Shown: piece after piece, positions 4,030 to 30,194 of the stretch
Layout of the letters: each line of letters opens with the position of its first letter
Numbering within the stretch: position 1 is the stretch's first letter
Assembly (NCBI GenBank): GCA_946407375.1
Contig: CAMJNS010000003.1
Location: 15,170-79,169 of the forward strand
Direction: 5' to 3'
DNA length: 64,000 nt
Source: an uncultured bacterium
GTDB lineage: Bacteria > Muiribacteriota > Ozemobacteria > Ozemobacterales > Ozemobacteraceae
Position numbers and translations under genes: made by a program
The notes under the pieces: generated by a model
The model's database searches: none
Seen by the model: only the letters and a program-made list of their open reading frames with translations
What the model was told of the DNA's origin: nothing

Positions 4030-4054
4030 ATCTTTCGTTAGTATTGTCTAAGTT

Positions 4055-4094
4055 GCTACCCCAGTAGTTTTTTAACTCTGGGGTAGCATCTTTT
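4055..4094 (+). terminator. Hairpin terminator after the RND pump gene
   Basis: Perfect 10-bp stem gctaccccag/ctggggtagc (4055-4064 and 4078-4087) followed by atctttt. Confidence 0.55.
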
Positions 4095-4231
4095 AGAAAA
4101 GCTGTCTTCATTTGGGTAATTTAAGATCTTCCCCTAGTTTTGCTGGGGGAAGTGATACGTAGTGCCGAAAGGGGGTTTCTCAACAACTGCCAGCAACAAA
4201 AAATAAAAAAATTAAAATTTTTTAAATTCTC

Positions 4232-4415
4232 CGTGGATTTTTAGTTTTTCGTTTTGTCTATATTTATGAAAGCGAACAAAGAACTTCGAAAGCGGTTCTA
4301 TAAAGCATAAATAATAAATCTAAGAAATTAAATTCAGGAGTTAAAATGAGAAAAGTATTTTCAATGGCAGCACTAATGGTATTCATGAACGCAGCAATGG
4401 CTATGGCAGCTTCAG
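4232..4415 (+). repeat. 184-bp perfect direct repeat, copy 1 (promoter + 5'UTR + RBS + signal-peptide codons)
   Basis: Base-for-base identical to 15664-15847 at a constant offset of 11432. Identity ends at a4416 versus g15848. Confidence 0.95.
4235..4260 (+). promoter_or_regulatory. Candidate two-block promoter GGATT-N16-GTCTA (copy A)
   Basis: The GGATT and GTCTA blocks are conserved in all three paralogous upstream regions, while the 16-nt spacer differs in copy B. An A-run/T-run tract lies immediately upstream. Confidence 0.35.
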
Positions 4416-4537
4416 ATCAAGTAACAAACAATCGACAGGATACCTTAAGAAACGACAAGACTCAGGTAGAATTGATGGGCGACAAACATACTGGTTCTGA
4501 TAATATCGATCCCACAAAAGCAGGTGTTAGAGTATAA
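4346..4537 (+). CDS. Small secreted peptide, paralog A (63 aa, Sec signal peptide, ~40-aa hydrophilic mature part)
   Basis: AGGAG sits 6 nt upstream of the ATG. Signal peptide MRKVFSMAALMVFMNAAMAMA/AS. The C-terminal 23 codons differ from paralog B by 6 synonymous and 2 conservative changes. Own terminators follow. Confidence 0.7.
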   Translation: MRKVFSMAALMVFMNAAMAMAASDQVTNNRQDTLRNDKTQVELMGDKHTGSDNIDPTKAGVRV

Positions 4538-4571
4538 AAAGCATAAATAAATGATATAGCCAACAAAAGAC

Positions 4572-4594
4572 CACTCGAAAGAGTGTTTTTTTTT
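4572..4594 (+). terminator. Intrinsic terminator (cactc-gaaa-gagtg + T9)
   Basis: 5-bp stem with GAAA tetraloop followed by nine T, 35 nt after the peptide A stop. Confidence 0.6.
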
Positions 4595-4636
4595 GCTTTG
4601 TTGTTATTGTAATCTCTAAACTTAGTTAACAACCGC

Positions 4637-4662
4637 CTCTGAAGCAATTCAGAGATTTTTTT
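4637..4662 (+). terminator. Intrinsic terminator conserved between peptide genes A and B
   Basis: ctctgaa-gcaa-ttcagag followed by a T-run. The block aaccgcctctgaagcaattcagagattttttt recurs at 5884-5914. Confidence 0.7.
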
Positions 4663-4698
4663 GTTTTTAGCAAAATTATCTCATTTCTAATTTTATAT

Positions 4699-5103
4699 CT
4701 ATTTGTTCAAATATTTATTACAAAACTCTCTAGCTGTTATTATTTTTGTCTTTTCAAACTTTTTTAAAACCAATAAATCTTTGTCGCCACTCACTATGTA
4801 AAGAGCTCCAGAATCTTTTGCACAACCAAGAAATTTATTGTCATCCGGGTCTCTACATATTTTAACATTTGATTTAGCCGTGATTATTTTTAAAGACTTT
4901 ATCAATGGAAACAATATATCTTTTCTTAATTTGCCTTGTTTCATATCTATCATTTCATCAACGATTTCTTGATATTCTTCAACAATTTCTGTTGTTGCAA
5001 AAGCATCAAATTCTTTCTGCAAAACAGCTTCTAGTATTTTTCTTGGTTCTCCACCGAAAAACACAGCAGAAATAACAACATTTGTATCTAGAACTATTTT
5101 CAT
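4699..5103 (-). CDS. PIN-domain toxin (VapC-like) of a type II toxin-antitoxin pair
   Basis: 134 aa. N-terminal MKIVLDTNVVISAVFFGG with acidic residues spaced as in PIN domains. 4-bp overlap with the upstream antitoxin gene. Confidence 0.8.
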   Translation of the reverse strand: MKIVLDTNVVISAVFFGGEPRKILEAVLQKEFDAFATTEIVEEYQEIVDEMIDMKQGKLRKDILFPLIKSLKIITAKSNVKICRDPDDNKFLGCAKDSGALYIVSGDKDLLVLKKFEKTKIITAREFCNKYLNK

Positions 5104-5366
5104 TTCCTTTTCTTTTTTCTTACCGATTTGATTATGTTGTTAACATCGCTTTCTTTATAACCTACAGAATCAGCCCATTCTTTTGCTTCGTCTAATGTTT
5201 TAGAAAATTCTTCAGCGGTTGGAAGTCTCAAGACTTTCAGCATTACAACATCACCAGAAGTATAAACAGCCAGTTTGTCGCCAGCATCAATATTTAAATT
5301 TCTTCTAATAGCAATTGGTAAAGAAATTTGCCCCTTAGATGAAAGAGTTAATATTCGAGCGTCCAT
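5100..5366 (-). CDS. AbrB/SpoVT-family antitoxin
   Basis: 88 aa. SSKGQISLPIAIRRNLNIDAGDKLAVY is a looped-hinge-helix (AbrB/MazE) signature. Translationally coupled to the PIN gene. Confidence 0.8.
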   Translation of the reverse strand: MDARILTLSSKGQISLPIAIRRNLNIDAGDKLAVYTSGDVVMLKVLRLPTAEEFSKTLDEAKEWADSVGYKESDVNNIIKSVRKKKRK

Positions 5367-5384
5367 TTTTTTGTTTTTCCTTTG

Positions 5385-5399
5385 GTAAGAATTTCTTAC
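5385..5399. promoter_or_regulatory. 15-bp perfect palindrome, candidate TA operator
   Basis: gtaagaa-t-ttcttac lies just upstream of the RBS (AAGGA) of the antitoxin gene on the minus strand. Confidence 0.4.
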
Positions 5400-5523
5400 T
5401 TAATTATAACATAAAAATCTTAATTTCAAAATTCGTCATTACTAGAACCTTTTAAACAGCTACAATAACTACCAACTACAATAAAAACTTTCAAAAAAAA
5501 TGAAATTTTTTTTGAAAATTCGT

Positions 5524-5549
5524 GGATTTTATAAATTTCATTTTGTCTA
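5524..5549 (+). promoter_or_regulatory. Candidate two-block promoter GGATT-N16-GTCTA (copy B)
   Basis: Same blocks and spacing as 4235-4260 but with a different spacer sequence. The flanking cgtggatttt and ttttgtctatattta.gaaagcgaac are conserved. Confidence 0.35.
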
Positions 5550-5605
5550 TATTTACGAAAGCGAACGAAATAAAAATAAAGTAAATAAACTTAGGAGTAG
5601 AAAAA

Positions 5606-5800
5606 ATGAAAAAAGTATTATCAATGGTAGCATTAATGGTATTTATGAACACAGCAATGGTTATGGCAGCTTCAGATCTAGTATCAAACAAACGACAGGA
5701 TACCACCTTAAGAAATGAAAGAACCCAAGTAGAACTTATGGGCGATAAACATACTGGTTCTGATTATATAGATCCAACAAAAGCAGGCATAAGAGTTTGA
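5606..5800 (+). CDS. Small secreted peptide, paralog B (64 aa)
   Basis: AGGAG RBS. Signal peptide MKKVLSMVALMVFMNTAMVMA/AS. Mature part aligns end to end with paralog A (VELMGDKHTGSD.IDPTKAG.RV). Confidence 0.7.
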   Translation: MKKVLSMVALMVFMNTAMVMAASDLVSNKRQDTTLRNERTQVELMGDKHTGSDYIDPTKAGIRV

Positions 5801-5888
5801 AAAACAGTAAACAGACAGCGAGGTAAAAACAAGCAAATCTAAAGATTGAAAGAAAAATTGCGATTCACAAAATTAAGTAAACAACCGC

Positions 5889-5914
5889 CTCTGAAGCAAT
5901 TCAGAGATTTTTTT
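5889..5914 (+). terminator. Intrinsic terminator, same sequence as 4637-4662
   Basis: ctctgaa-gcaa-ttcagag followed by a T-run. Confidence 0.7.
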
Positions 5915-6118
5915 ATTTTAGCTTCTATTGGCGTAATATTTTTTGTTTATTTGTTATAAATACATTCACTACTTTGGTTATTATTACTTAATTCCAACAT
6001 AAATAATATAAAATCATAGTTAACAACTTAATAAATTATTCAAAGAAAGTTTTTCATGGTCTTAGAAAGACTTATAATAAAGTTAACTATCTTTTATATA
6101 TTTATAAGGAGAATTAAA

Positions 6119-6880
6119 ATGGTAGAGGAACTTCTATTTACAAAAATTGTTGATAAATCGACTCTTTATGAAGGAATAAGCATTCCTGTTGCTTATCAGA
6201 AATTTCTTTTAAGTAAAATGCATTTCTCCTTAGAAAAAGGTAGTCAGAAAAATATTAAAGTGGAAATGTGTGGATATATTTACGATGATGCTGTTATAAA
6301 GAATCAATTTTTTGATGAAGTGAAATTTCCAAATCACTCAGATTTAATACAGATTCGTTATGCTAAGCAAAGTTTACTTGCCCAAAAAATACGTGAAGTT
6401 TTTTCTGTAACAGAATATTTCGTTAATGAGTATTGGAAAAATCAAGCGGATAATAAATCACACCTTGTTATACCTGAAGACAGAAGAGAATACATTGCTT
6501 TATATGTATCAAAAGATAGAATTCGATTTGATTGTATTCCACGTAATTTAACAATAAATACTCAGTCAAAAACTGATTTTGGTGAGGAAGCACCTCAAAG
6601 AAGAGAAACAACGACTTTGGGGTTCAAAAGAAATGCAAACGTTATCGAAAAAGCAAAAGAACGTGCTTCAGGAATTTGTCAATTGTGTGGTAATCTAGCT
6701 CCTTTTTGTGATAAACAGGGATATCCATATTTGGAAGTACATCATGTAATATGGCTTTCACGTGGAGGTGCTGATAAATTAAGCAATGTAGTTGCTTTAT
6801 GTCCAAATTGCCATTCGAAAATGCATATCGTCGATGATGAACAAGATATAGCACTTTTACTAGAAAAAGCTAAGCTATAA
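6119..6880 (+). CDS. HNH endonuclease (McrA-like C-terminus) with an uncharacterised N-terminal domain
   Basis: C-terminal CQLCG...PYLEVHHVIWLSRGGADKLSNVVALCPNCHSKMH is a CxxC/HH/N/CxxCH HNH motif. Start moved to the ATG at 6119, which has AAGGAG 7 nt upstream. The N-terminal FTKIVDKSTLYEGISIPVAYQKF resembles the opening of B3/EcoRII-N pseudobarrels (weak). Confidence 0.8.
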   Translation: MVEELLFTKIVDKSTLYEGISIPVAYQKFLLSKMHFSLEKGSQKNIKVEMCGYIYDDAVIKNQFFDEVKFPNHSDLIQIRYAKQSLLAQKIREVFSVTEYFVNEYWKNQADNKSHLVIPEDRREYIALYVSKDRIRFDCIPRNLTINTQSKTDFGEEAPQRRETTTLGFKRNANVIEKAKERASGICQLCGNLAPFCDKQGYPYLEVHHVIWLSRGGADKLSNVVALCPNCHSKMHIVDDEQDIALLLEKAKL

Positions 6881-6976
6881 TATAATTCATACAGTAATTT
6901 GCTATAGAAACAATTGTTGATTTATAATCGTATTAATTCTAAAGTAATACATAAAATAAATAAGAGCTTCTGTAAT

Positions 6977-8431
6977 ATGAACTATGACGAACTAGTAAAT
7001 CTAAGACAAATGAATGTCGCTTGGATTTTGCTTCGAGCTGATAATGCCCCATTAATAATAAGTTTTCTACACAAAACTTTTATAGAGCCAAATAAAAGAG
7101 ATATAGCCAAAAACATATTAGAAAATTTACTTGAAGATGAGTTGTTCAAATTAAGAGATAGAAATCAGGATCTTTTTCCTAAAAAAGCGTCTGAATACAT
7201 TACAGATTGGCAAAAAAGTGGCTATTTAAGGAATTTTTATGTTGATAACGACGATGAGCCTCATTATGATATTTCCGCAAAGGCAGAAAAAGCCATTCAA
7301 TGGATAGACGATTTAATATCTAAAAAATTCGTAGGTACTGAATCGCGTTTAAGAACTATTTTCAGTTTAGTTGAACAAATAGTTATTGGATCTGATAGAA
7401 ACAAAGAAAATCGTTTAGAAAATTTGGAAAAGCAAAAACAAACTCTTGAAGCTGAAATAGAGAAATTGAAGGCTGGAAATGTATCTATTTTAAGCGATAG
7501 TGAAATTAAAGACAGATTTCAGCAGGTTATTTCTTTGTCTAATATGATGTTAAGCGATTTTAGAGAAGTTGAAGATAATTTTAGAAAACTAGACCAAGCC
7601 ACACGAGAAAAAATAGCAACCAGTGATGGTGCCAAAGGAGAAGTTCTAGAAACTCAATTCAAAGATTTTGATTACATTGAGTCAACCGATGAAGGAAAAA
7701 GCTTTAAAGCCTTTATGCAATTTATTATGTCGCAAGATAAAATAGACGATTTCGATGAAAAATTGGCTAAAATACTTGAAATGAAACAGATTAAAGAGCT
7801 CAAACCAGATAAAAAAATTGCTAAAATATATCGAAATTGGCAGAAAGCTGGAGAATCAACTCAAAAAATGGTTATAAAACTTACTCAAAGACTAAGTAGG
7901 TATGTAAGCCAAAATATATCATCCCAAAACAAAAGTATTGAGCGACTTATAAAAAGAATAGAAAACATGGCAATAAAACTTAAAACAATTGCTAATAACG
8001 ACAAAAATTACATGGATATAGATAAAGCAGGAATTGAATTATCTATGCCAATGGAATTACCTCTTTGGACTTCTTCTGAAAAGCCAAATATTGTTTCAGA
8101 CATTGAAATTGGCTTAGAAAATGACATAGATGATAGTGCCCTATATAATCAAGTCTTTGTAGATAAGCAATCCATAATAGATAATATTCGTAAAGCACTG
8201 AATTTAAATGAACAAACAACTTTAGGACAGGTTATAAATAATAATCCGTTAAATAAAGGTTTAATGGAGTTAATAAGCTATTTTAGCGTTGCAAGTGAAA
8301 TGCAAAACAACCGGCAAATTAATATAATTTGTGATGATTCAAGTAAAGAAGAAATAAAATGGTTAGATGAAAGTTTGCAAGCAATTCGAGTTGCCAAAAT
8401 TCCAAAAATAACAATAAGCTACGAGAAATAA
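6977..8431 (+). CDS. jetA: Wadjet JetA (kleisin-like subunit, DUF3375-type)
   Basis: N-terminal MNVAWILLRADNAPLIISFLHKTF matches the conserved JetA opening as I recall it. ~484 aa with a central coiled coil. First of four contiguous genes with JetABCD sizes and order. Confidence 0.8.
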   Translation: MNYDELVNLRQMNVAWILLRADNAPLIISFLHKTFIEPNKRDIAKNILENLLEDELFKLRDRNQDLFPKKASEYITDWQKSGYLRNFYVDNDDEPHYDISAKAEKAIQWIDDLISKKFVGTESRLRTIFSLVEQIVIGSDRNKENRLENLEKQKQTLEAEIEKLKAGNVSILSDSEIKDRFQQVISLSNMMLSDFREVEDNFRKLDQATREKIATSDGAKGEVLETQFKDFDYIESTDEGKSFKAFMQFIMSQDKIDDFDEKLAKILEMKQIKELKPDKKIAKIYRNWQKAGESTQKMVIKLTQRLSRYVSQNISSQNKSIERLIKRIENMAIKLKTIANNDKNYMDIDKAGIELSMPMELPLWTSSEKPNIVSDIEIGLENDIDDSALYNQVFVDKQSIIDNIRKALNLNEQTTLGQVINNNPLNKGLMELISYFSVASEMQNNRQINIICDDSSKEEIKWLDESLQAIRVAKIPKITISYEK

Positions 8432-8432
8432 A

Positions 8433-9056
8433 ATGACTATATCTGAAGAAGAAAAAAATAATTATAACTTTTCCAAAATACTTATAAACCTTATGAAAGG
8501 TATTGTTTATAGAGAAGATGATGTAAATATTTGGAATTATTTAGAAGATAATGAATCTCAAGTTTCTGAACACTTTAAAATAATTGGTTTACGGCTAATT
8601 ATTGATAAATCAAGAGGTTACGCTTATTTAAAGCAAATCTTATTTAACCTGGAAGAGGAACAACTGCCCAGATTAATAAGGAAACAACCTCTAAGTAGAC
8701 AAGTATCAATATTAATTGTTGTTTTACGGCAAATTGTTATAGAAAAAGAAAACTCAGGTAGTGATGATAGAATCATTGTTTCTTTTGATGATATAGCAGA
8801 TAAATATAGAGCGTTTTATCCAAATAGCAATGATGATGAAAAAAAATTCTATAAAGATTTAAAATCATATTTAAAGAAGGTTATAGATTTAGATTTTATT
8901 AGAGAATTAAAAAGTGAAGAAGATAATTATGAAATAAAACCAATAATAGTATCATTTGTAGATATGGATTGGCTTAACAATTTCAAGGACAGGTTAACAG
9001 ATGAATTGAGAGAAAACAATATAGATATTGCTGATGAAAATGAGGATTTAGAATGA
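8433..9056 (+). CDS. jetB: Wadjet JetB (KITE-like subunit, DUF4194-type)
   Basis: 207 aa acidic protein. Starts 1 nt after the jetA stop and overlaps jetC by 4 bp. Size and position fit JetB. Confidence 0.7.
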   Translation: MTISEEEKNNYNFSKILINLMKGIVYREDDVNIWNYLEDNESQVSEHFKIIGLRLIIDKSRGYAYLKQILFNLEEEQLPRLIRKQPLSRQVSILIVVLRQIVIEKENSGSDDRIIVSFDDIADKYRAFYPNSNDDEKKFYKDLKSYLKKVIDLDFIRELKSEEDNYEIKPIIVSFVDMDWLNNFKDRLTDELRENNIDIADENEDLE

Positions 9057-12000
9057 ATTACGAACAAAGCTTTTTAGAATTTGCAACAGATAATTCAACA
9101 ACAGGTTTTAGACTAGATCGTTTAGAAATACTTAATTGGGGAACTTTCGACCAAAAAGTCTGGTCTCTTTATCCCTCAAGCAGAAATATTCTAGTTACTG
9201 GTGAAATTGGTTCAGGAAAATCAACAATAGCAGATGCAATTAGTACTTTGCTTGTTCCTCCACAGTGGTTGTCTTTTAATAAAGCCGCAGGAGCAGAAAG
9301 AAGAGAGAGAGATTTAAAGTCTTATGTTTTAGGTTTCTATAAAACAGAATCTGCTGATAGTGGTCTAATAGGTAAACCAGTAGCTTTACGTGATATAAAT
9401 TCATATTCTGTAATATTGGGAGTTTTTAAAAATTCAGGATACAATCAAGTTTATACGCTAGCACAAGTTTTTGTAGCCAAACCAGAAGGTGGGCAACCTG
9501 AAAGATTTTATTTTATTTCAAGTTCAGATTTATCAATTAAAAATGATTTTTCAGGCTTTGGAAATGAAATCAAAGCATTAAAATCAAGATTAAGAAAAAT
9601 ACCTGATTCAAAAATTTATGATACTTTTCTACAATACGCTAACGATTTTAAAAGATATTTTGGAATAGATAATAATCAGGCTTTGGGTTTATTTAATCAA
9701 ACAATTTCAATGAAGTCTGTTGGAAATCTTACGTCTTTTATTCGCGAAAATATGCTTCAAGAATATGAAACGAATGAAGAAGTAAATGCAATGATTCAGA
9801 ATTACGAACAGCTTTCAAAAGCTCATGACGAAATTCTTAAAGCCAATGATCAGATAGAAATCTTAAAGAAAATATCTAATATTGGTCAAGAATGTAGCAA
9901 ATTTGAAAAAGAAATAAATGATACTGAAAATAAATTAGATGCTTTACATTCTTATATGCTAGTAAACAAAGTTTCTTTTGTAGAAAAAGAAATTAATAGA
10001 TTAAATAATGAAAAAGAAAATGTTGATCAAGAATTAAATAAATTAAAAGAAGATGAAACAAACTATAATAGTCAAGTAACAGAAATAACTACTAATATAG
10101 TTTTAAATGGTGGCAATGAGATTACAGAAATAGAAAATAAAATAAAAACTCAAGAAAAAGAACTAAATAAACGCAAAAGAAATGAGGAAGAATATAAATC
10201 TATTTTAGCTATGACAGATTTAATATTCCCCATTGATATAGCAAGTTTTGAAAATAACAAACGTCAAATTGAAACAATAAGAAATTATACAAAATCAGAA
10301 TATTCTATAAAAAATGAAGAAAAATTTAGCAAAAAGCTTAATATTCAGGTATTAAAAAACAATAAAAAACAAATAGATGATGAAATAAATTCATTAAAAG
10401 GGCGTATAAACAATATTCCACTAGAACAAATAAAGATAAGAAGTTTAATTTGTACTAAAACAGGTTTGTTAGATGATGAATTACCATTTGTTGGAGAGCT
10501 TATTCAGGTAAAAGAAAGCGAAAAAGCATGGCAAGGAGCTATTGAGCGAGTCCTTCATGGTTTTGGGTTATCTCTATTAGTATCTGATTCTGTATATTCT
10601 AAAGTATCCAAAGCTGTTGATGAAACAAATCTTAAAGGTAAAATTGTTTATTTCAGAGTAAAAAACTTGGAAAACAGAATAAGTAACTATAATATTTCAC
10701 CAAATTCTATGGTTAGGAAAATAAAGGTAAAGCCAGATTGTTGGGCTTATGATTGGTTGCAAAATGAATTAGAAGAAAGATTTAATTATATATGTTGTGA
10801 AAACTTAGAATTATTCCAAAAAGAAAAATATGCAGTTACAATAAATGGTCAGGTTAAACATGGTGGAGTAAAGCATGAAAAAGACGATAGAAAAGCAATT
10901 AACGATATTTCTACTTATATTTTAGGCTGGAATAATAAAGAAAAAATATTAAATTTAAAAGCTGAATCTGATAAAATTCAAGAAGAAATAAATTCTTTAT
11001 TATCTGAAATAAAATTACTAGATAATAGATTAAAATTATTAGAACTTAAAGACAATAAATTGCATGAACATATAAAATATAGTAGCTATGAAAATATAGA
11101 CTGGAAAAGCATTGATTTAGAAATAAAAGAGTTACAAGAAAGATTAGAAGAGCTACATAAATCTTCTGACAAACTTAATAAGCTAAGAGAACAAAAAACA
11201 AAGCTAGAAGAAAAAATAAATGAGATAAAAGTTATAATTAATACAAAAACTAAGAAACAAGGCGGAATTGAAAATAAAATAAGCGAATTAAATAAAATAT
11301 TAAACAAATCTAGTGATGAAATAAATTCTAATAATGACTTCCCCAAGACAGAATATTTAGAAAGTTGTTTAAGTGAAATAATAAATGATATTAAAGAAAT
11401 ATCATCATTAGAAGAGTTTGATAGACAAGAAAGAATTTTAAACAAAAAATTTAATGATTTGAAATCAAATCTTCAAAAGGATTTTAGTGATAAAAAGAAT
11501 ATATTAGTCAAAGAAATGAGTGTATTTAAAAATAAATATGTCTTAGAATCAGCAGAACTGGGGCAAGAATATCAATATCTTTCTGATTACAATAAATTCC
11601 TTTTAAGGCTACAAAATGATGATTTGCCTAGATTTGAAACAAGATTTAAAGATTTACTGCATCAACAAACAATTCAAGGAATTGCTTCCTTTAATTCAAA
11701 GTTAAACAGAGATTCTGAAGAAATAAAAGATAGAATTAGAGCTATAAATGAGTCGTTAAAAGAAATTCAGTATAATGAAGGTCGTTATATAAGAATTGAA
11801 GTTATTTCTAATAATGACAAAGAAATAAATGATTATAAAAGCGATTTACGAAATTGCACAAACAATTCATTAAATTTTTCTGATGACGAATATTATAATG
11901 AACAAAGATTTGAAGCCGTTAAAGTAATTATAGACAGATTAAAAGGTCGAGAAGGCTTTATTGATGCAGATAAAAAATGGCGTTTAAAAGTTACTGACGT

Positions 12001-12433
12001 TAGAAATTGGTTTAATTTTGCTGCTTCTGAAAGATATAAGTCTGATGACAGTCAGGCAGAATATTACAATGATTCTACAGGAAAATCCGGAGGACAAAAA
12101 GAAAAGCTTGCATATACTATATTGGCGGCGGGATTAGCTTACCAATTTGGTTTAAGAAAAATAGGCGAAACCAAATCAAGAAGTTTTAGGTTTGTTGTAA
12201 TTGATGAAGCTTTTGGTCGTGGAAGTGAAGAATCAGCCCGCTTTGGATTAGAACTTTTCAAAAAACTGGATTTACAGATAATGGTTATAACACCTTTGCA
12301 AAAAATACACGTCATAGAGCCATATATAGACAATGTGGGTTTTGTGGCTATCAGCGACAACAGGTCTAGAATTCGTAATTTAAGTATAGAGCAATATAAA
12401 GAAGAATATAATGAAAGAACTACAAAACAGTAA
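9053..12433 (+). CDS. jetC: Wadjet JetC (SMC-like ATPase)
   Basis: 1126 aa. N-terminal Walker A GEIGSGKST, a very long K/E/N-rich coiled-coil middle, then C-terminal signature SGGQKEKLAYTILAAGL and Walker B FRFVVIDEAFGRGS. Confidence 0.9.
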   Translation: MNYEQSFLEFATDNSTTGFRLDRLEILNWGTFDQKVWSLYPSSRNILVTGEIGSGKSTIADAISTLLVPPQWLSFNKAAGAERRERDLKSYVLGFYKTESADSGLIGKPVALRDINSYSVILGVFKNSGYNQVYTLAQVFVAKPEGGQPERFYFISSSDLSIKNDFSGFGNEIKALKSRLRKIPDSKIYDTFLQYANDFKRYFGIDNNQALGLFNQTISMKSVGNLTSFIRENMLQEYETNEEVNAMIQNYEQLSKAHDEILKANDQIEILKKISNIGQECSKFEKEINDTENKLDALHSYMLVNKVSFVEKEINRLNNEKENVDQELNKLKEDETNYNSQVTEITTNIVLNGGNEITEIENKIKTQEKELNKRKRNEEEYKSILAMTDLIFPIDIASFENNKRQIETIRNYTKSEYSIKNEEKFSKKLNIQVLKNNKKQIDDEINSLKGRINNIPLEQIKIRSLICTKTGLLDDELPFVGELIQVKESEKAWQGAIERVLHGFGLSLLVSDSVYSKVSKAVDETNLKGKIVYFRVKNLENRISNYNISPNSMVRKIKVKPDCWAYDWLQNELEERFNYICCENLELFQKEKYAVTINGQVKHGGVKHEKDDRKAINDISTYILGWNNKEKILNLKAESDKIQEEINSLLSEIKLLDNRLKLLELKDNKLHEHIKYSSYENIDWKSIDLEIKELQERLEELHKSSDKLNKLREQKTKLEEKINEIKVIINTKTKKQGGIENKISELNKILNKSSDEINSNNDFPKTEYLESCLSEIINDIKEISSLEEFDRQERILNKKFNDLKSNLQKDFSDKKNILVKEMSVFKNKYVLESAELGQEYQYLSDYNKFLLRLQNDDLPRFETRFKDLLHQQTIQGIASFNSKLNRDSEEIKDRIRAINESLKEIQYNEGRYIRIEVISNNDKEINDYKSDLRNCTNNSLNFSDDEYYNEQRFEAVKVIIDRLKGREGFIDADKKWRLKVTDVRNWFNFAASERYKSDDSQAEYYNDSTGKSGGQKEKLAYTILAAGLAYQFGLRKIGETKSRSFRFVVIDEAFGRGSEESARFGLELFKKLDLQIMVITPLQKIHVIEPYIDNVGFVAISDNRSRIRNLSIEQYKEEYNERTTKQ

Positions 12434-13616
12434 AGACATAAAAGAAGAACTTAATAAAGTTTGGAATAAAGGCTTGATTTTGTGTCAAAAATTAAGCATT
12501 AACAAAGATCAAAGAGTCATAGAATTTCCTTATAAAATAAGACTTAGACAGCCTGCATCAAAAGATAGAGCTGATATTTCAAATTATAATACAATTAAAG
12601 ATTGGTGCAAGCACTGGAAAGATCAATATGATTTATTTGGCAAGCAAAAACTTAATATAAGCATTGAATATATGCCGATTAATGACAGAATTTTAGGGAA
12701 ACAGGAACTTCCTGCGTATATTGTGGTAAATGATATAAATAGCTTCATACATTATATAAAAAAAGAAAAAGAGATTAAACAATTTGAAGAAATAGTAACG
12801 GTTATTTTTGATGAATGTTCTAATCTCCTTAATTTAATGAATGATAAGCCTTTCGATTTTTTGAAATACGATTCAAAAGAATGGCACAAAATTATACAAG
12901 TATCTGTTTGGATAGCTAACAATCCAAATCCAAATATTTATTTAAGAGAATTGGAAATTCCTAATGTTGATACAAAATTTATAGAAAAGCATGATGGAAT
13001 TTTGAAAAAAGTAATAAATTTTCTTCTTAACAAAGATGAAAAAGATTTTGCTACGAATAATTTTGAAGTACGCTATGGATTCAAAAGAAAGCCTGTAACA
13101 GTTCATTTTCGTATTCTTGACAAAGATTTAGCTATAAATGGCTTAACGGATTTAGAAATCCCTATTGAGGATTTTGCTAGATTAAATATTTCTGTCAAAA
13201 AAGCATTTATAATAGAAAACAAGATTACAGGGTTGTCTTTCCCAAATGTAAAATCAGCAATAGTTATTTTTGGTCTTGGTTTTGGGCTAGATAGACTTAA
13301 AAAATGCGGTTGGCTGAATAATTTGGAATTATATTATTGGGGTGACTTAGATACAAACGGTTTTGTTATGCTAGACCAGTTCCGTTCTTATTTTCCAAAA
13401 GCCAAATCAATGCTAATGACTTCAGAAATTGTTAAAGAGCACAAAGATATGTGGGTTAAAGAGGAAAAACAATCTATTAGAGAGTTAACTCATTTAACAG
13501 CTGATGAAGCAAATACCTACAAAGAATTAAAAGAAAACAAACACACCAACAATTTACGCTTAGAACAAGAACGAATTAATTTTTCTTTTGTAAAAGAATT
13601 TTTAAATAGTCTATAA
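12411..13616 (+). CDS. jetD: Wadjet JetD (Toprim/topo-VI-like nuclease subunit)
   Basis: 401 aa and overlaps jetC by 23 bp. C-terminal YYWGDLDTNGFVMLDQFR is a Toprim DxD motif, as in JetD/MksG. Confidence 0.8.
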   Translation: MKELQNSKDIKEELNKVWNKGLILCQKLSINKDQRVIEFPYKIRLRQPASKDRADISNYNTIKDWCKHWKDQYDLFGKQKLNISIEYMPINDRILGKQELPAYIVVNDINSFIHYIKKEKEIKQFEEIVTVIFDECSNLLNLMNDKPFDFLKYDSKEWHKIIQVSVWIANNPNPNIYLRELEIPNVDTKFIEKHDGILKKVINFLLNKDEKDFATNNFEVRYGFKRKPVTVHFRILDKDLAINGLTDLEIPIEDFARLNISVKKAFIIENKITGLSFPNVKSAIVIFGLGFGLDRLKKCGWLNNLELYYWGDLDTNGFVMLDQFRSYFPKAKSMLMTSEIVKEHKDMWVKEEKQSIRELTHLTADEANTYKELKENKHTNNLRLEQERINFSFVKEFLNSL

Positions 13617-13709
13617 ATAATACTATTTTTTACGTTTGGTTTTAAAGGTGGATTAGTTATGGTTGATGAAATTTCTAATCGATCTTATTGTCTTTTCAAT
13701 TCTCAATTC

Positions 13710-15413
13710 TCATTTTACAACAGCTACTCGGCAGCGCTTTTTATAGCAGGCTATGACAAACTTTCTGACTACATAAGTATCTTCGTCATCGAAGATTTTG
13801 ATATATCGATTGTTTTCGATTTGCTTTATTCCCTCGTCAAGAGCTTCCTGGAATTTTTTGGGGCTTTCTGCGTATTTGAGTTCTATTATTATGCCAATAG
13901 TATAGCTTGGAGTGTAAAGAATAAGGTCAGGATAGCCGTAACCAGATTCTTTGTTTGATTCAACAATAAGTTTCTTGTTGTTTGGGGTTAATAAGCCTAG
14001 CAGAAGACCATGGTAGAAGTTTTCCTTGTAATCTTTCTTCGCCATACTGTCTCTGACACTGATAGACTGCTCCAGAATTTCAGTAAAAGCTTTTTCAACT
14101 TTTTCTGCATTTCCATCATATAAACCATCATAGAGTTCATTCATAAGAGGCTGTTTTTCTATGAAAGAATCTTTCATCCATTCCATAATCTGATCTTCAT
14201 AAAGAACTCTTATTTCTCTATTGGGAATTCTTAGACTGAAAGTGTCGTTGCTTTCTCGGTCGGTAAAGGTAAGATAGCCCGTAGAAAAAAGAACGCTCCA
14301 GATATTGTCTGTCTTTTTATACAAATCTCTGTAGGTAATTTCCTGCTTAATCTTTTTAGTGATTGTCTCGCCAGCAACCAGGCTTTCAATCTCTCTTTTG
14401 GTTGAGTTGTCAGCTTCTTTTAAGAATTTGATTATTATGTCGTTTCCGCTGGTATTTGCCCAGTAAGGTTTTGGAAAAACATTTATATCTGTATCTAGTT
14501 GGCTACAGAAAAGTATTACATCCCATGGGCAATAGACTTCTTTTTTCCCGAATCTATAACCATCATACCATTTTTTTGCATCGTCGAATCTAGAAGAAAC
14601 TTTGTAGTAATCGAACATTTCTCTAACTTCGTCTTCTGTGAAACCAAAAAATTCGGAAGCTTCATTATCTGCAATAGAAAATACGTTGAAATTATTTACT
14701 CCAGTAAAAATGCTTTCTTTGGCTATTCTCAGGCAACCAGTAAGCACAGCCATTTCTAAATATGGATTTGTTTTGAAAGTGTTATTGAACATTCCCCTTA
14801 TAAGAGAAATCATTTCGTTGAAATAACCATTGTTTTCCGCTTTATCTAAGGGAACATCATATTCGTCGATAATGAAAACTGTCTTTTTGCCGTAATGTTT
14901 GTATATTAGTTCAGAAAGAATTCTGAGGCTTTTGGTAATTAGATCATTTTGTTTTTCTTTATCGTATTTTTCTATATTTTTTATACTTTTAAAAGTATCT
15001 TTTTCTTCATCGTTTAATTTTTCACTATTAGATAAATCATTAAAAGAGCGAACAGCATCTAGAACCAGTCCCATTAGATGGAGTCTTGCGGATTCAAAAC
15101 TGTTTCCTTCAACGCCTTTTAAAGTCATAAAAATAGTAGGAAACTGGTTCTGCCATTCTTCACAAAGTGTTTTGTTCTCAGATATTTTCAAGCCATTGAA
15201 TAATTCTGGATTGCCACCCATTCTTAAAAATTCGTAAAGCATGGTCATGTTAAGAGTTTTGCCGAAACGTCTTGGGCGGGTGAATAGATTTACATCACCC
15301 TTTTTCTCTTTCAGATATTCTATTAACCCTGTTTTATCAATATAATAAGAATGGTCGTTTATTAGTTTTTCAAAAATATCTGTTCCTATTGGTAATGGCT
15401 TTTTATTGGACAT
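13710..15413 (-). CDS. AAA-ATPase-like protein with C-terminal PD-(D/E)XK nuclease domain (AAA-ATPase_like + PDDEXK_9 architecture)
   Basis: N-terminal PIGTDIFEKLI...YIDKTGLI...FTRPRRFGKTLNMTML is the family signature. The C-terminus has YPDLIL...IIIELKY, a D...ExK motif. Confidence 0.8.
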   Translation of the reverse strand: MSNKKPLPIGTDIFEKLINDHSYYIDKTGLIEYLKEKKGDVNLFTRPRRFGKTLNMTMLYEFLRMGGNPELFNGLKISENKTLCEEWQNQFPTIFMTLKGVEGNSFESARLHLMGLVLDAVRSFNDLSNSEKLNDEEKDTFKSIKNIEKYDKEKQNDLITKSLRILSELIYKHYGKKTVFIIDEYDVPLDKAENNGYFNEMISLIRGMFNNTFKTNPYLEMAVLTGCLRIAKESIFTGVNNFNVFSIADNEASEFFGFTEDEVREMFDYYKVSSRFDDAKKWYDGYRFGKKEVYCPWDVILFCSQLDTDINVFPKPYWANTSGNDIIIKFLKEADNSTKREIESLVAGETITKKIKQEITYRDLYKKTDNIWSVLFSTGYLTFTDRESNDTFSLRIPNREIRVLYEDQIMEWMKDSFIEKQPLMNELYDGLYDGNAEKVEKAFTEILEQSISVRDSMAKKDYKENFYHGLLLGLLTPNNKKLIVESNKESGYGYPDLILYTPSYTIGIIIELKYAESPKKFQEALDEGIKQIENNRYIKIFDDEDTYVVRKFVIACYKKRCRVAVVK

Positions 15414-15663
15414 ATCTATGTTCCTGCTTTTGTTTTATAGATTTATTCTAATAGGAAATCTTGTTTTTAGCAAGATGTTGAGAATTGAGAGATATGAGAC
15501 CATAACTTGAGATATAAGATTAAAGTAATTGTTGTTGTCAATTTTTTGAAGCTTACGCTTCTCTTGTTTTTGTTGTAGTAATTTATCGATTTATTTCAAA
15601 CTTTTGATTGCTTGAGAACTAAACAATCCTCTTATCTCTCTTCTCTAAAAAAAAATTTTTTAG

Positions 15664-15847
15664 CGTGGATTTTTAGTTTTTCGTTTTGTCTATATTTATG
15701 AAAGCGAACAAAGAACTTCGAAAGCGGTTCTATAAAGCATAAATAATAAATCTAAGAAATTAAATTCAGGAGTTAAAATGAGAAAAGTATTTTCAATGGC
15801 AGCACTAATGGTATTCATGAACGCAGCAATGGCTATGGCAGCTTCAG
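15664..15847 (+). repeat. 184-bp perfect direct repeat, copy 2
   Basis: Identical to 4232-4415. Confidence 0.95.
15667..15692 (+). promoter_or_regulatory. Candidate two-block promoter GGATT-N16-GTCTA (copy C)
   Basis: Lies inside the perfect repeat, at the same position relative to the ATG as copy A. Confidence 0.35.
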
Positions 15848-17664
15848 GTCTTGTCTCCTACAACAGACAGGATGTCACCTTTAAGTATGGCAAGACTCAG
15901 GAAAACGTGACCTGTATTCAGGATGCCAAGGATGAAAAGCAGTGGTACTACGTATCCAACAAGCCAAGACTTGCCGAAAGCAAGAATGGCGATCCTATGA
16001 TGATGCTGGTTTCCTACCAGAAGAATTCAAAAGCAGGTGTTAAGAATGACGGCGGTATCCTCCAGTGTGGTATCAACCTCTCTCTTCCTGCAGATGCAAT
16101 TCCAACTCTGAGAAAGGAACTTGCAAAGACAGTCGGTGTTTCTGACAGCAAAATCAAGCTTGCTCCACTTGATATGAAGAACGCCAAGCTTATGGTCTAT
16201 GCTCCCGGCGGAGATCTCATGGGTGACAAGCTTACAGCCCCAGAAATCGGTCCAAGCTTCGCCAACGAATGTCTTCCAATACAGATGAATCTCAACAATC
16301 TCGGTGTTCCTGTTATAGAAGCTTTGATCAAAGGTACAGGCGGATTACAGGTAGTATATGTATTTGACTATGACGCACTAACTCCTGAATATTCTGTAAA
16401 AGTCACAGCTAACTACGACAAGGCTTTTGAACACTTCAGCCACGATTCAAAAACCTCTGTATCCGCCAAGAAATGGTTTTTTGCTGGTGCCAGTTCAGAT
16501 GTAAGCGTTACCACTGTAAGAGAAAAACTCCAGCAGTCAGGAGCACTGAAGATTGAATCCATCGGCGGTGAAAAGCTTACTGATGAACAGATCGACAAAC
16601 TCACCCAGCCTGTTATTGAAAAACTGATGAACGGTATCTATGAAATCGAAACTCCTGAAAAGATAGACCCCGCAAAATCAGGCGATCCTAAGGAAGTTAA
16701 GACAGCCTGGATCAATGTAAGCACCAATATGGCATTCAAGAGTGTAAAGACTCGTAAGACCGGTGAATTTGTATACGACTTCAGAAAACGCTACATCGAA
16801 ACCAGAAAGACAACTGTCGGCGGAATTATGAGTCTTGCCGGTTACACTCAGGCTCAGAGAGATGCTGCTGTTCAGACTGTTGATCCAACCTACTGGAAGA
16901 ATGCTTTCTACAGTCTGCCAACTATCAGTAAGTCCTTGAACGGTATTGATGAAATGACTGTAACTGTAAACTTCCTCTACAAGGGCAAACAGGCAGAAGG
17001 AACCGAACAGCAGCTTGCCAAATGGACCAAGAAGGAAGGCTGGGTTGACGCTAAGAAGGAAGAATGCGTAGGTCTTGAATTCCCACTCAAATACTTCTAT
17101 GACAAGTATGCAAAGAACAACAGCAGATTCGCAGACGACATCTCCTATCAGCAGAATTTCGAAGTAACCTATATGGAAGGCAACAATACCAAGGTTAAGA
17201 AGTTCTCTACTACAGTTCCTGCTTTCACAGGCGAAATCCCGATAAGCACTCCGATGGTCGGCGTAACCTACATCGAACTCAATGCTGATGAAGAAGACAT
17301 CACCTGGGACAAGGCAGATTACGAAGGCGGAGAATTCGACGGTTTGAAATCCAATCTTACCAAGATCGGTGTTAAGATGGAATCCAAGAACCCCGGCAAC
17401 AAAGGCACTGCAACTTTGACAAGCAAGAACACCTCAGCAGGTTTCTGGTTCGACAATCTCTTCGACAAGAAGACCGGCACCTACTCAGTTCCACAGGTTT
17501 CTGCAACATATACATTCTATAATACCAAATTAGCAAAAGCTATGGGTACTAAAGACAATAAAACTATAGTTGTAGAAAGTGACGATGCATTGAGCGAAAG
17601 CACAAGCATAACCTTTATGAATGACAGTTATATGCCAGTTGAAAAACCAGCATCCTACAAGTAA
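15778..17664 (+). CDS. Secreted 628-aa protein of unknown function, predicted highly expressed
   Basis: Signal peptide identical to peptide A. Mature N-terminus SGLVSYNRQDVT is homologous to peptides A and B. Codon usage is strongly C-ending (tac, aac, aag, atc, ttc, ctc) like tuf and unlike its neighbours. A strong terminator follows. Confidence 0.85.
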   Translation: MRKVFSMAALMVFMNAAMAMAASGLVSYNRQDVTFKYGKTQENVTCIQDAKDEKQWYYVSNKPRLAESKNGDPMMMLVSYQKNSKAGVKNDGGILQCGINLSLPADAIPTLRKELAKTVGVSDSKIKLAPLDMKNAKLMVYAPGGDLMGDKLTAPEIGPSFANECLPIQMNLNNLGVPVIEALIKGTGGLQVVYVFDYDALTPEYSVKVTANYDKAFEHFSHDSKTSVSAKKWFFAGASSDVSVTTVREKLQQSGALKIESIGGEKLTDEQIDKLTQPVIEKLMNGIYEIETPEKIDPAKSGDPKEVKTAWINVSTNMAFKSVKTRKTGEFVYDFRKRYIETRKTTVGGIMSLAGYTQAQRDAAVQTVDPTYWKNAFYSLPTISKSLNGIDEMTVTVNFLYKGKQAEGTEQQLAKWTKKEGWVDAKKEECVGLEFPLKYFYDKYAKNNSRFADDISYQQNFEVTYMEGNNTKVKKFSTTVPAFTGEIPISTPMVGVTYIELNADEEDITWDKADYEGGEFDGLKSNLTKIGVKMESKNPGNKGTATLTSKNTSAGFWFDNLFDKKTGTYSVPQVSATYTFYNTKLAKAMGTKDNKTIVVESDDALSESTSITFMNDSYMPVEKPASYK

Positions 17665-17673
17665 GGAGGAAAA

Positions 17674-17714
17674 TCAGGAAGCCTCTCGGCGCAAGCCGGG
17701 AGGCTTTCTGGTTT
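17674..17714 (+). terminator. Strong intrinsic terminator
   Basis: caggaagcctctcggc-gcaa-gccgggaggctttctgg gives a ~16-bp GC-rich stem with GCAA loop, followed by tttt. Confidence 0.75.
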
Positions 17715-18023
17715 TAGGTATTGATGGTATAACTCACATTAACATTGAAGATTTTCTTTTGCATAAAAAAGATCTATTTCTGTCTTAAGAGTTTAGCTAG
17801 ATAGGCTATTCTAAAGCCTCTTCTTAGTGGTATTACAGCAATACATCCATCCAGAAAATATTAAATTAAAAATAACTCAATCAAATTTATAGATAAAGCA
17901 AGACTAAGGGGCTGCAATGCGGTTAGCGTTTTGTATATTGAGAAATCGGCTTTAACAATCTTAATAATTATTAAATTGCGCGAATGTTCGGTTGTGTTAT
18001 AATAAAAAATCAGGAGTAGAATT

Positions 18024-19715
18024 ATGTCACAACGCTTTTTCCATAAAAAATATGCCTTAATTTCGATAATTGCTTTAACTTCATTAAGTTGCTATGCTCA
18101 AGAAGCAGAAATAACTAGTAGTCCAAAATATTATGATAGAAGTGTAATCAATAGAATTTTAGTTAAAGAACAGTTAGAAAATAATAAATCAACAAAATTA
18201 AATATAACAAATACTCAGGAAGGCCCTATTACTCAGCCTGATGAACCTAGTGGAAAAATCTATAAATCAACATCTTTCGGGGCTTGCGATATTTTTGATA
18301 AAGATGAACAAGCATCTTTTACTATTTCTCTGAAAAATGCTGTTGAAATGTCTTTAAACAATAATATTGCTTTAAATATTGAAAAAATAGATCCTGAAAT
18401 CTATGCAACAAGTGTAGAACAGGCAAAAGCAGAATTTGACACAAATATTTCTGCTTCTATTTCTGCTTCAGATAAAAGAAGTCGTTCAATAAATGCAAAC
18501 GATGTAATCGGGCGAAATTCAAATAATGGAACTACAGCTTCTATAGAAGCTGAGAAGAAATCTACTTCTGGTATAAGAACCAATGTTAGTGCTTCTATTA
18601 ATAGAAGCAGAACAACAAGCCATTCTAGTCTTTATGCAGCTAGATTAGGAATAGATGTTACCGCTCCTTTAATGCGTGGTGCAGGTAAAGAAGTTAATCT
18701 TGTTTCTTTGAGAAAAGCCGAATTAGATTTAGATTGGTCAAAATATGAGCTTTACGGTTATATTCTTGATTTTGTCAGCGAAACTGAAAAAAAATATTGG
18801 CAGTATTATTTAAATGTTGAGCAGCTTGAAATTGTTAAAGAATCTCTACAACTAGCTTTGCAACAACGCGATGAAACACAGAAACGTATTGAGGTTGGCA
18901 AAATTGCAGAATCAGAAATAGCAGCTGCTGATGCTGAAGTTGCACTTTGTCAGGAAGATTTGATTGATGCTGAAAGCCGAGTTGTTAGTTCTGCAATTTC
19001 TTTGCTTCGCAATATAAACCATGATACGGAAAACTTTTGGAGAAAAAGACCAAATGTAATAAGTATGCCAAAACTTAGAGAAATCGACCAATACGATTTC
19101 AACTTGGAAGACTGCATCGCAGACGCTTTGGTTATGAGACCAGAACTTAGGCAAGCAGAGTTAATGCAGCGGAAAAACGAGTTAGAAATTGTATCAACAA
19201 AAAATGGCATGCTTCCAAAATTAGACTTTTTTATTAGTCTTGGAAAAACTGGTTATTCAAAGTCTTTTGATGGTTCAGAACCAAGCTTTAATCATAAAGA
19301 ACCTTTTGATTCTTCTGTTGGACTAACTTATGATTTGAATCGTCATAGAAGAGGCGAAAAGGCCAAGTATGATAGAGCTAAGCTGAACTTGAAGCTTCAA
19401 AAAGAATCTATTAAGAATCTTGAACAGCTTGTAAAAGAAGACGTTATAAAAGCTTATATTGAAATTAAGCGAACAAAAGAACAGCTTGCAGCTACAACAG
19501 CAACTGCTCAGAAACAGGAAGAAAAACTAAGAGTTGAAAATGTAAAATTTGATGTTGGTAAAACTACTGCTTTTCAGGTTGCTCAGGCCCAACGAGATTT
19601 AACTGCTGCTAAAATCGCTCAAGTAAAAGCAATTATAGATTATACTGTTTCTAAGTCAGAACTTCTTCGTTCAACAGGATTACTGCTAAAATTTCGTGGT
19701 ATAGAAGTAAAATAA
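18024..19715 (+). CDS. TolC-family outer-membrane efflux protein
   Basis: 563 aa with signal peptide. Two OEP-type repeats with long helical/coiled segments. C-terminal region FDVGKTTAFQVAQAQRDLTAAKIAQVKAIIDY is typical of the TolC family. Confidence 0.8.
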   Translation: MSQRFFHKKYALISIIALTSLSCYAQEAEITSSPKYYDRSVINRILVKEQLENNKSTKLNITNTQEGPITQPDEPSGKIYKSTSFGACDIFDKDEQASFTISLKNAVEMSLNNNIALNIEKIDPEIYATSVEQAKAEFDTNISASISASDKRSRSINANDVIGRNSNNGTTASIEAEKKSTSGIRTNVSASINRSRTTSHSSLYAARLGIDVTAPLMRGAGKEVNLVSLRKAELDLDWSKYELYGYILDFVSETEKKYWQYYLNVEQLEIVKESLQLALQQRDETQKRIEVGKIAESEIAAADAEVALCQEDLIDAESRVVSSAISLLRNINHDTENFWRKRPNVISMPKLREIDQYDFNLEDCIADALVMRPELRQAELMQRKNELEIVSTKNGMLPKLDFFISLGKTGYSKSFDGSEPSFNHKEPFDSSVGLTYDLNRHRRGEKAKYDRAKLNLKLQKESIKNLEQLVKEDVIKAYIEIKRTKEQLAATTATAQKQEEKLRVENVKFDVGKTTAFQVAQAQRDLTAAKIAQVKAIIDYTVSKSELLRSTGLLLKFRGIEVK

Positions 19716-30032: not shown

Positions 30033-30194
30033 ATAAAAATCTGTACCCTTTAATATAAATTATAATCAAAAAGTGTCAAGTAAGCAATAATTTGTTCAGG
30101 ATAAAAGAAATATTGAGTAAAAAGATTGATTTTTCCCCTGAAAACAAAAAATATATCTTGTAAAGAGTTTATATTTTGGTTATCTTTTAGAATT

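Follow-up and report, generated by a model that had tools for sequence, protein, structure and literature searches.

The closest described systems to the locus analysed here are the exoproteins of type II secretion (GspD/PilQ secretins), the type IV and chaperone-usher operons for pili and fibres, the SLH-anchored S-layer or OmpM-type proteins of diderms, and Ig-like or macroglobulin surface proteins such as invasin, intimin, FdeC and the MG domains of alpha-2-macroglobulin. The locus is a 628-aa open reading frame (ORF) at positions 15778-17664 (+) of a 64,000-nucleotide stretch of DNA, here called the window, from an uncultured bacterium of the Ozemobacteraceae (assembly GCA_946407375.1, contig CAMJNS010000003.1, positions 15,170 to 79,169 of the forward strand). 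The opposite strand of 15778-17664 holds no competing ORF of at least 80 aa, and the ORF is a real gene. We use B for the type of the 628-aa protein, A for a distant paralogue, and B1 and B2 for the operon copies of B. The codon bias of the window gene is the most extreme in its genome and is of an expression-linked type. Its relatives accompany an orphan secretin gene in a cluster that, judging from the genomes searched, is restricted to one Riflebacteria family (Ozemobacteraceae/Rifleibacterium group).

Each of the described systems resembles this locus in part. As in type II secretion, B has an N-terminal Sec signal and a predicted soluble, folded, multi-domain body, and its orthologues and paralogues lie directly downstream of a GspD/PilQ-like secretin gene. 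However, the B cluster is without GspE/F/G-type platform, ATPase or pseudopilin genes, its cargo-like genes are a set of paralogues (A, B1, B2 and so on), and the window copy is unlinked to a secretin. Pilus and fibre operons share the gene pattern: the B1 type and the window copy have their own conserved promoter and a strong bias, A and B2 are unbiased, and a secretin is in the cluster. However, B is a 607-aa protein and not a small pilin, its signal is of class I without a prepilin motif, and no usher, chaperone or sortase accompanies it. B resembles the SLH-anchored and OmpM-type proteins in being exported, in its similar or higher codon bias and in being a candidate abundant envelope protein, but it lacks both an SLH domain and a beta-barrel, and its distribution is patchy and accessory. 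Finally, the C-terminal half of B is predicted to consist of stacked beta-sandwiches, as in Ig-like and macroglobulin surface proteins. Weak Foldseek matches, to MG/FN3 chains as well as an FdeC-like phage protein, together with cluster partners that carry Big_1/Invasin_D3 and TIG domains, point the same way. However, B has no sequence match to Big, MG or FN3, the TM-score of those matches is about 0.1, and the N-terminal half has no relative in the PDB.

Codon usage of the window gene

Codon ranks were taken among the 1614 non-overlapping ORFs of at least 200 aa in the host genome (2.97 Mb in 167 contigs, 33.8% GC). The GC content at third codon positions (GC3) of the 628-aa gene is 0.469, compared with a genome ORF mean of 0.224 (sd 0.049), and its C content at these positions (C3) is 0.294; both values rank second. 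The corresponding values for tuf are lower (GC3 0.317, C3 0.229). A reading made earlier from the sequence only had described a preference for C-ending codons as strong as that of tuf, and this preference is real and even stronger than proposed. The fractions of TTC (0.69), TAC (0.55), AAC (0.53), AAG (0.67), ATC (0.59), CTC (0.28) and ACC (0.40) are all well over the genome values. Furthermore, the gene ranks first for Karlin's B(g given all), which is to say that no other gene in the set departs as far from the average codon usage of the genome.

A log-odds index, which compares 23 highly expressed genes (ribosomal proteins, tuf, tsf, two copies of GroEL, DnaK and GAPDH) with the genome, places the gene at rank 24 (z +3.0). 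Broken down by codon class, this index gives rank 1 for two-fold codons, rank 20 for Leu/Ser/Arg/Ile and rank 353 for the four-fold boxes. Under Karlin's criterion, a gene is predicted highly expressed (PHX) when E(g), the ratio of B(g given all) to B(g given the highly expressed set), exceeds about 1.05. The 628-aa gene, with an E(g) of 1.27 (rank 85), is one of the 133 genes above 1.05 and is PHX by this measure. In the four-fold boxes, it prefers ACC, GCA, GTA and AGA, and ribosomal proteins and tuf prefer ACT, GCT, GTT and CGT. The bias is therefore not simply that of ribosomal proteins, and the match to the host optimal set is partial.

The classical codon adaptation index (CAI) gave a different picture. 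Measured against 15 ribosomal protein genes, the 628-aa gene has a CAI of 0.615 (rank 1359, z -0.9; genome mean 0.661, sd 0.048), compared with 0.765 (rank 34) for tuf. Translation-optimised codon usage had been claimed from the sequence and CAI had been named as its check, so a value slightly under the mean formally speaks against the claim. However, CAI penalises this gene because the commonest synonymous codons in the ribosomal proteins of an AT-rich genome are mostly T- or A-ending, and the gene overshoots the ribosomal proteins in TTC, TAC, AAC, GAC, AAG, CAG, ATC and CTC. The low classical CAI is an artefact of CAI in a genome of 34% GC. In AT-rich genomes, CAI alone can rate as average a gene that overshoots the ribosomal proteins in the expression-linked direction, and a refutation test by CAI only would have thrown out a real signal. 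A self-consistent (iterative) CAI was also tried and discarded, as it converged on AT-richness instead of expression. The claim of translation-optimised usage holds for the log-odds rank and E(g), but not for the CAI rank or the deviating four-fold boxes.

The GC3-rich genes of the genome form two classes, split by their G content at third positions (G3) and their use of GAG. A foreign-looking class has G3 of 0.15-0.18 outside Lys/Gln and GAG fractions of 0.3-0.46; genes with raised G3 and GAG were seen at C2:48175-49125, C36:2749-3756 and C10:29766-33203. The second class has G3 of at most 0.03 and no GAG, and holds tRNA synthetases, a fermentation enzyme and the operon paralogue. The 628-aa gene falls in the second class: its G3 outside Lys/Gln is 0.026 (0.020 in the highly expressed reference genes, 0.049 in the genome), its C3s is 0.31, and GAG is used at 0 of 39 positions. 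The tRNA genes found, an incomplete set of 34, include three for Glu-UUC but none for Glu-CUC; Gln is served by both Gln-CUG and Gln-UUG, and the NNY boxes have GNN anticodons. When synonymous changes were polarised with four outgroups, 47 were AT>GC and 19 GC>AT, mostly T>C. A 93% identical relative (L009) has the same synonymous pattern, with a GC3 of 0.51. The dN/dS ratios of 0.047-0.09 against four relatives indicate that the gene is under strong purifying selection. We conclude from these comparisons that the codon bias is probably of a selected, expression-linked type that overshoots ribosomal proteins, and not donor composition.

Among the A and B copies of this genome, the bias is found in B1 (log-odds rank 33) and the window copy only; A and B2 rank 521 and 485. 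In AT-rich relatives, the operon B1 copies have GC3 of 0.34-0.43 compared with 0.19-0.24 for their neighbours, and the secretin gene of one relative (L001) has an ordinary GC3 of 0.23. Within the window gene, GC3 is uniformly high (0.4-0.67) outside codons 571-600 (17488-17577), where it falls to 0.17; the same codons in L009 have 0.63. Recent gene conversion from the operon copies is not supported as the cause of this dip, as the identity in this stretch is only 79-82%.

The secretin gene cluster and the B protein

In relatives with readable flanks on long enough contigs, B genes are found in a cluster that is conserved across distant genera. Its order is a Big_1/invasin-like lipoprotein, a small lipoprotein, a GspD/PilQ-like secretin, A, one to five B genes and a TIG/NHL beta-propeller lipoprotein of 1190-1465 aa, sometimes with a protein of ~230 aa before the last of these. 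The secretin matches TIGR02517 (E 1e-60) and TIGR02515 (E 2e-45), both below cut-off. Paralogue A (571-593 aa) has 20% identity to B (E 6e-13; HMM E 1e-65 to 1e-80). In the host genome, the cluster is located on contig C25, where it includes A, B1 and B2; this B1 is 99% identical to the orthologue in a metagenome-assembled genome (MAG) from goat. The window gene has 88% protein identity to B1 and a dS of 1.28, and it is a dispersed third B copy with a putative promoter of its own. Secretin linkage was seen for the operon paralogues and orthologues at no fewer than seven loci, and not for the window copy. Exceptions are L009, on a 2.3-kb contig without neighbours, one extra dispersed copy in genome G020, and the distant L003/L004 locus, which has no adjacent secretin. 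The fixed association of the family with an orphan secretin points to an undescribed envelope or secretion apparatus.

It should also be noted that the window encodes a GspE/PilB-type ATPase (T2SSE, MshEN) at 30126-31859, 12 kb downstream of the 628-aa gene. It is possible that this ATPase is a platform component for one of the genome's secretins. In G020, four tandem long flagellin-like genes adjoin the secretin-A-B cluster. Such very long genes (730-870 aa, beginning MALRINHN or MSLRINQN) were seen at L016 413-3025 and L017 2165-11616 in G020 and at L028 165-2357 in G043.

The 628-aa protein begins with the signal peptide MRKVFSMAALMVFMNAAMAMA, followed by AS after the cleavage site; the layout is MRK as n-region, VFSMAALMVFMNAAM as h-region and an AxA motif (AMA). 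Residues 4-22 are the sole hydrophobic 19-mer in a hydropathy scan (KD19 1.87), and no membrane segment was found beyond the signal peptide. No lipobox (L-x-x-C) is present in the protein, with the first Cys not before residue 46, and there is no class III (prepilin) signal by the N_methyl profile. The protein thus has the features of a Sec/SPase I substrate and not those of a lipoprotein, pilin or pseudopilin. The mature chain has 607 aa, a mass of 67.4 kDa and a pI of 6.4. Its C-terminus (PASYK) has no aromatic beta-signal and its AF2 model is alpha/beta with beta-sandwiches, unlike an outer-membrane beta-barrel. Judged from these features, the protein is Sec-exported and soluble. The Sec signal without lipobox, the lack of a beta-barrel terminal motif and the strong ribosome binding site (RBS; AGGAG at 15768-15772, 5 nt before the ATG) had all been read correctly from the sequence. 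A GC-rich terminator had been read as well, and it is present with a stem of 21 bp instead of the ~16 bp proposed; its hairpin folds at -36.8 kcal/mol (z -8.1), and 0 of 200 shuffles fold as well. The 5' untranslated region (UTR) folds no better than shuffles, and Rfam gave no match on the 5'UTR or the 3' region.

An exhaustive profile search returned 836 cluster representatives of the family at E<=1e-3 and 176 at E<=1e-30; a word-indexed search returned 22 relatives only. The source names of the relatives are all 'hypothetical protein', and the named source genomes are Candidatus Riflebacteria rumen MAGs (goat, reindeer, cattle), Ca. Rifleibacterium and Ozemobacteraceae. Among species-representative genomes, 30 of the 51 in the window's GTDB family have family members, with at most 10 matches in any one genome, and none of the 36 from the ten further families of the phylum has any. 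Three congeners that are >95% complete have none. This patchy distribution argues that the family is not a core envelope component. We found no account of the family in the literature on Riflebacteria, Ozemobacter, secretin and NHL. Riflebacteria have the highest density of unknown gene families reported for any phylum (PMC10849945). Two family members with 25-28% identity are filed under other labels (L040, from a MAG labelled Erysipelotrichia, and L043, CP070696.1, labelled Spirochaetaceae), which could reflect mislabelling, mis-binning or rare transfer.

No Pfam domain was found in 65 diverse family members, and Pfam, NCBIfam (E<=0.1), PHROG and PADLOC gave no match for the 628-aa protein. 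The conserved beta-rich domain (residues 24-212) holds the family signature QWYY(V/I)xxxP(R/K)LA as well as the majority of the invariant residues (W56, Y57, Y58, P73, Q96, G189). In the helical insert that follows (213-315), a hydrophobic-moment scan finds one clear amphipathic helix at residues 270-287 and no conserved alternating (amphipathic) beta pattern. The C-terminal region has variable, gap-rich loops at about 504-520, 558-570 and 594-605. The full AF2 model is confident and compact (pLDDT 78, pTM 0.73), and the N-terminal half alone reaches pLDDT 83. Against the PDB, Foldseek found no fold match for the N-terminal half (best E 0.07, TM <0.2), and weak matches only to macroglobulin/FN3/Ig chains (beta-sandwich) for the full model. 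BFVD returned an uncharacterised Medusavirus protein (E 1e-6, TM 0.2-0.27) and phage tail/FdeC-like proteins, which are uninformative, and PDB sequence profile searches with alignments A2 and A3 gave nothing usable, the sole match being ArgRS (E 0.1). The earlier statement that no motif could be placed is borne out by these searches, including the Foldseek comparison that had been suggested as a check. A large family is therefore left without a name, a Pfam model, or a solved or recognisable fold.

Proposed role and competing explanations

The region upstream of the 628-aa gene holds the blocks GCGTGGATTTT (15663-15673, with GGATT at 15667-15671), a 16-nt spacer, GTCTA (15688-15692) and GAAAGCGAA, and then the AGGAG of the RBS. 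The blocks do not vary among the upstream regions of five orthologues (the window gene, L009, and L001, L008 and L031, the latter three being operon B genes). Since they are invariant even though synonymous sites of the five coding regions are saturated (dS 0.8 to >1), they probably form the promoter and leader native to the B1 gene, and we treat GGATT-N16-GTCTA as the putative native B promoter. The module is absent upstream of the operon copy C25a (B1) in the host genome, so the window gene is the only full-length B gene with this promoter there. At C25:22357-22515, upstream of operon B1, a short hairpin (GACGGGTGAAACCGTC) replaces the conserved promoter blocks. The A-B1 intergenic region also has tandem GGTAAGT/GGTGAGT-like heptamers (host C25:22357-22515; L008 5870-5920), and similar heptamers follow B2 from C25:26383 onward.

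We propose that B is a Sec-exported, soluble, multi-domain 67-kDa protein, abundant from its own promoter, and the main structural or adhesive part of an envelope system linked to a secretin; we give this proposal an even chance of being right. B would be made in large amounts and exported by Sec, and would then probably reach the cell surface through the cluster secretin. A and B2 would be its minor partners, and the TIG/NHL lipoprotein its anchor. The codon usage suggests that the product of the 628-aa gene is made in large amounts, perhaps as one of the exported proteins with the highest output in a rumen bacterium. The sequence-only reading had listed it as one of the most abundant exported proteins, which the expression-type bias makes plausible.

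Several results weigh against this proposal. The classical CAI is under the genome average, and the four-fold boxes depart from the preference of ribosomal proteins and tuf. In the non-rumen genomes G020 and G055, the GC3 of B genes does not exceed that of their neighbours. The family is missing from 21 of the 51 genomes of the GTDB family, the three near-complete congeners among them. The window copy is not beside a secretin, so the link to the cluster depends on its paralogues and orthologues. Furthermore, the cluster lacks genes for an inner-membrane platform or an ATPase, and to our knowledge no known secretin works without them.

The composition of the gene could also be explained by recent horizontal acquisition from a GC-richer donor, making it foreign cargo of the insertion described below and not a highly expressed gene. 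It does lie within a ~14-kb insertion together with defence genes, a third B copy was found in none of the other congeneric genomes searched, and its low CAI, its distance from the genome average and its choice of ACC, GCA, GTA and AGA (0.82) are unlike host highly expressed genes. However, the enrichment is confined to C3, AAG and CAG, and other G-ending codons are as rare as in host highly expressed genes, with GAG absent. Its flanks, its promoter and its signal-peptide module are all rich in AT and shared with resident genes, the closest relative (L009) has AT-rich flanks as well, and the operon B1 copies of AT-rich relatives are likewise enriched in GC3 over their neighbours. The gene may have been transferred between close relatives, but even this would leave the bias unexplained. 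We therefore consider a foreign origin of the composition unlikely. A different doubt concerns when the gene is expressed. B could be a periplasmic or outer-membrane-associated envelope protein that is induced by an alternative sigma factor of the extracytoplasmic function (ECF) type under particular conditions, rather than a surface component with constitutive abundance; it would then not have to be a substrate of the secretin. The GGATT-N16-GTCTA blocks are the only invariant promoter blocks, and we take them to resemble sigma-E/ECF promoters (GGAACTT-N16-TCTGA-like) more than the -35 and -10 elements of sigma-70. A simple sigma-70 scan upstream of the gene gives 9/12 matches at best, and the secretin cluster has no platform genes. 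On the other hand, no ECF sigma/anti-sigma pair adjoins the gene, a genome-wide search for the motif finds three module copies and one probable chance match, from which no regulon can be defined, and the strong codon bias favours high output under at least some conditions, so that induction by an ECF factor also seems improbable to us.

The two remaining explanations give B another function altogether. An S-layer or sheath role, also suggested by the sequence-only reading, would suit an abundant-looking, exported protein with several paralogues and Ig-like C-terminal domains with variable loops. However, Pfam and NCBIfam (E<=0.1) show no SLH or other known anchoring domain in the 628-aa protein, a family missing from so many genomes is a poor candidate, and two SLH-domain proteins of the genome have equal or higher expression-type bias; our data give the suggestion no support, and we think it very unlikely. 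These two proteins, with SLH motifs of the type FSDVPASHWAY, are encoded at C5:20886-22532 (rank 5/1614) and C42:16680-18299, both with strong expression-type bias, and are better candidates than the 628-aa protein for an OmpM/S-layer-type major envelope protein. A secreted pore-forming or toxin-like effector, whose helical insert would refold on a target membrane, is brought to mind by the superficially MACPF/CDC-like combination of a beta-rich core and a helical insert of low conservation (213-315) and by the nearby secretin in orthologous clusters. We find this explanation hard to credit at all, as neither the 628-aa protein nor the 65 family members have a Pfam MACPF/CDC or aerolysin match, the best CDC match in Foldseek has an E of 0.017 (probability 0.07, TM 0.1), and toxins do not usually show high constitutive-type codon bias or occur in tandem paralogue arrays. 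The lack of an amphipathic beta pattern in the insert led us to reject its reading as a pore-former.

The proposal of a secretin-linked envelope role can be extended, though the extension is speculative and probably wrong in at least some part. A/B, the orphan secretin and the Big_1 and TIG/NHL lipoproteins might constitute an undescribed, Ozemobacteraceae-specific, secretin-dependent surface assembly system with a 67-kDa major subunit of new fold. The promoter/signal-peptide/first-beta-strand module would have been copied to give ~40-aa secreted peptides that could cap or modulate assembly, and the repeated module would serve as a recombination boundary for swaps of defence cassettes.

The insertion and the copies of the promoter module

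The 628-aa gene is part of an insertion of about 14 kb (Table 1) between an RND pump gene (937-4029) and a TolC-like gene (18024-19715). In congener G042 (L027, G042:C128 8507-14226), the genes for the membrane fusion protein (MFP), the RND pump and TolC are contiguous, with a 21-nt gap. Besides the 628-aa gene, the insertion carries peptide genes, a PIN/AbrB pair, an HNH type IV-like nuclease, Wadjet JetABCD and an AAA-ATPase/PD-(D/E)XK gene. As the 628-aa gene is within the segment that splits the MFP-RND-TolC operon, it is accessory cargo. The earlier view of it as a chromosomal anchor gene outside the island is therefore incorrect; the duplication of its 5' end at the left edge of the island, which formed part of the same claim, is confirmed by the first of the two module copies in Table 1.

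Table 1. Positions in the window of the insertion, the promoter module with its copies, and the parts of the 628-aa gene
Feature	Position	Strand	Basis
Accessory segment, about 14 kb	4030..18004	.	comparison with congener G042
Copy of promoter/RBS/signal-peptide module, heads 63-aa ORF 4346-4537	4232..4441	+	96% identical to 15664-15873
Third, diverged module copy, heads 64-aa ORF 5606-5800	5492-5701	+	60% identical to 15664-15873
Putative B-gene promoter and 5'UTR module	15647..15777	+	blocks invariant across orthologues
Sec (SPase I) signal peptide, residues 1-21, cleavage between AMA and AS	15778..15840	+	read directly from sequence
N-terminal beta-rich domain, conserved, residues 24-212	15847..16413	+	alignments A2, A3
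Helical insert, residues 213-315, least conserved part of N-terminal half	16414..16722	+	DSSP on AF2 models
Predicted C-terminal beta-sandwich (Ig/MG-like) region, residues 318-600	16729..17577	+	AF2 full model
Intrinsic terminator, 21-bp GC-rich stem, GCAA loop, A-tract before, U-tract after	17670..17715	+	fold energy

As a result of the insertion, the terminator of the 628-aa gene now lies upstream of tolC, so tolC must use a new promoter in the gap at 17716-18023. The sequence upstream of tolC orthologues differs per congener, with rlmN in G043 (L028, G043:C62) and unrelated exported proteins in G044 (L029, G044:C234), and this region appears to be a rearrangement hotspot.

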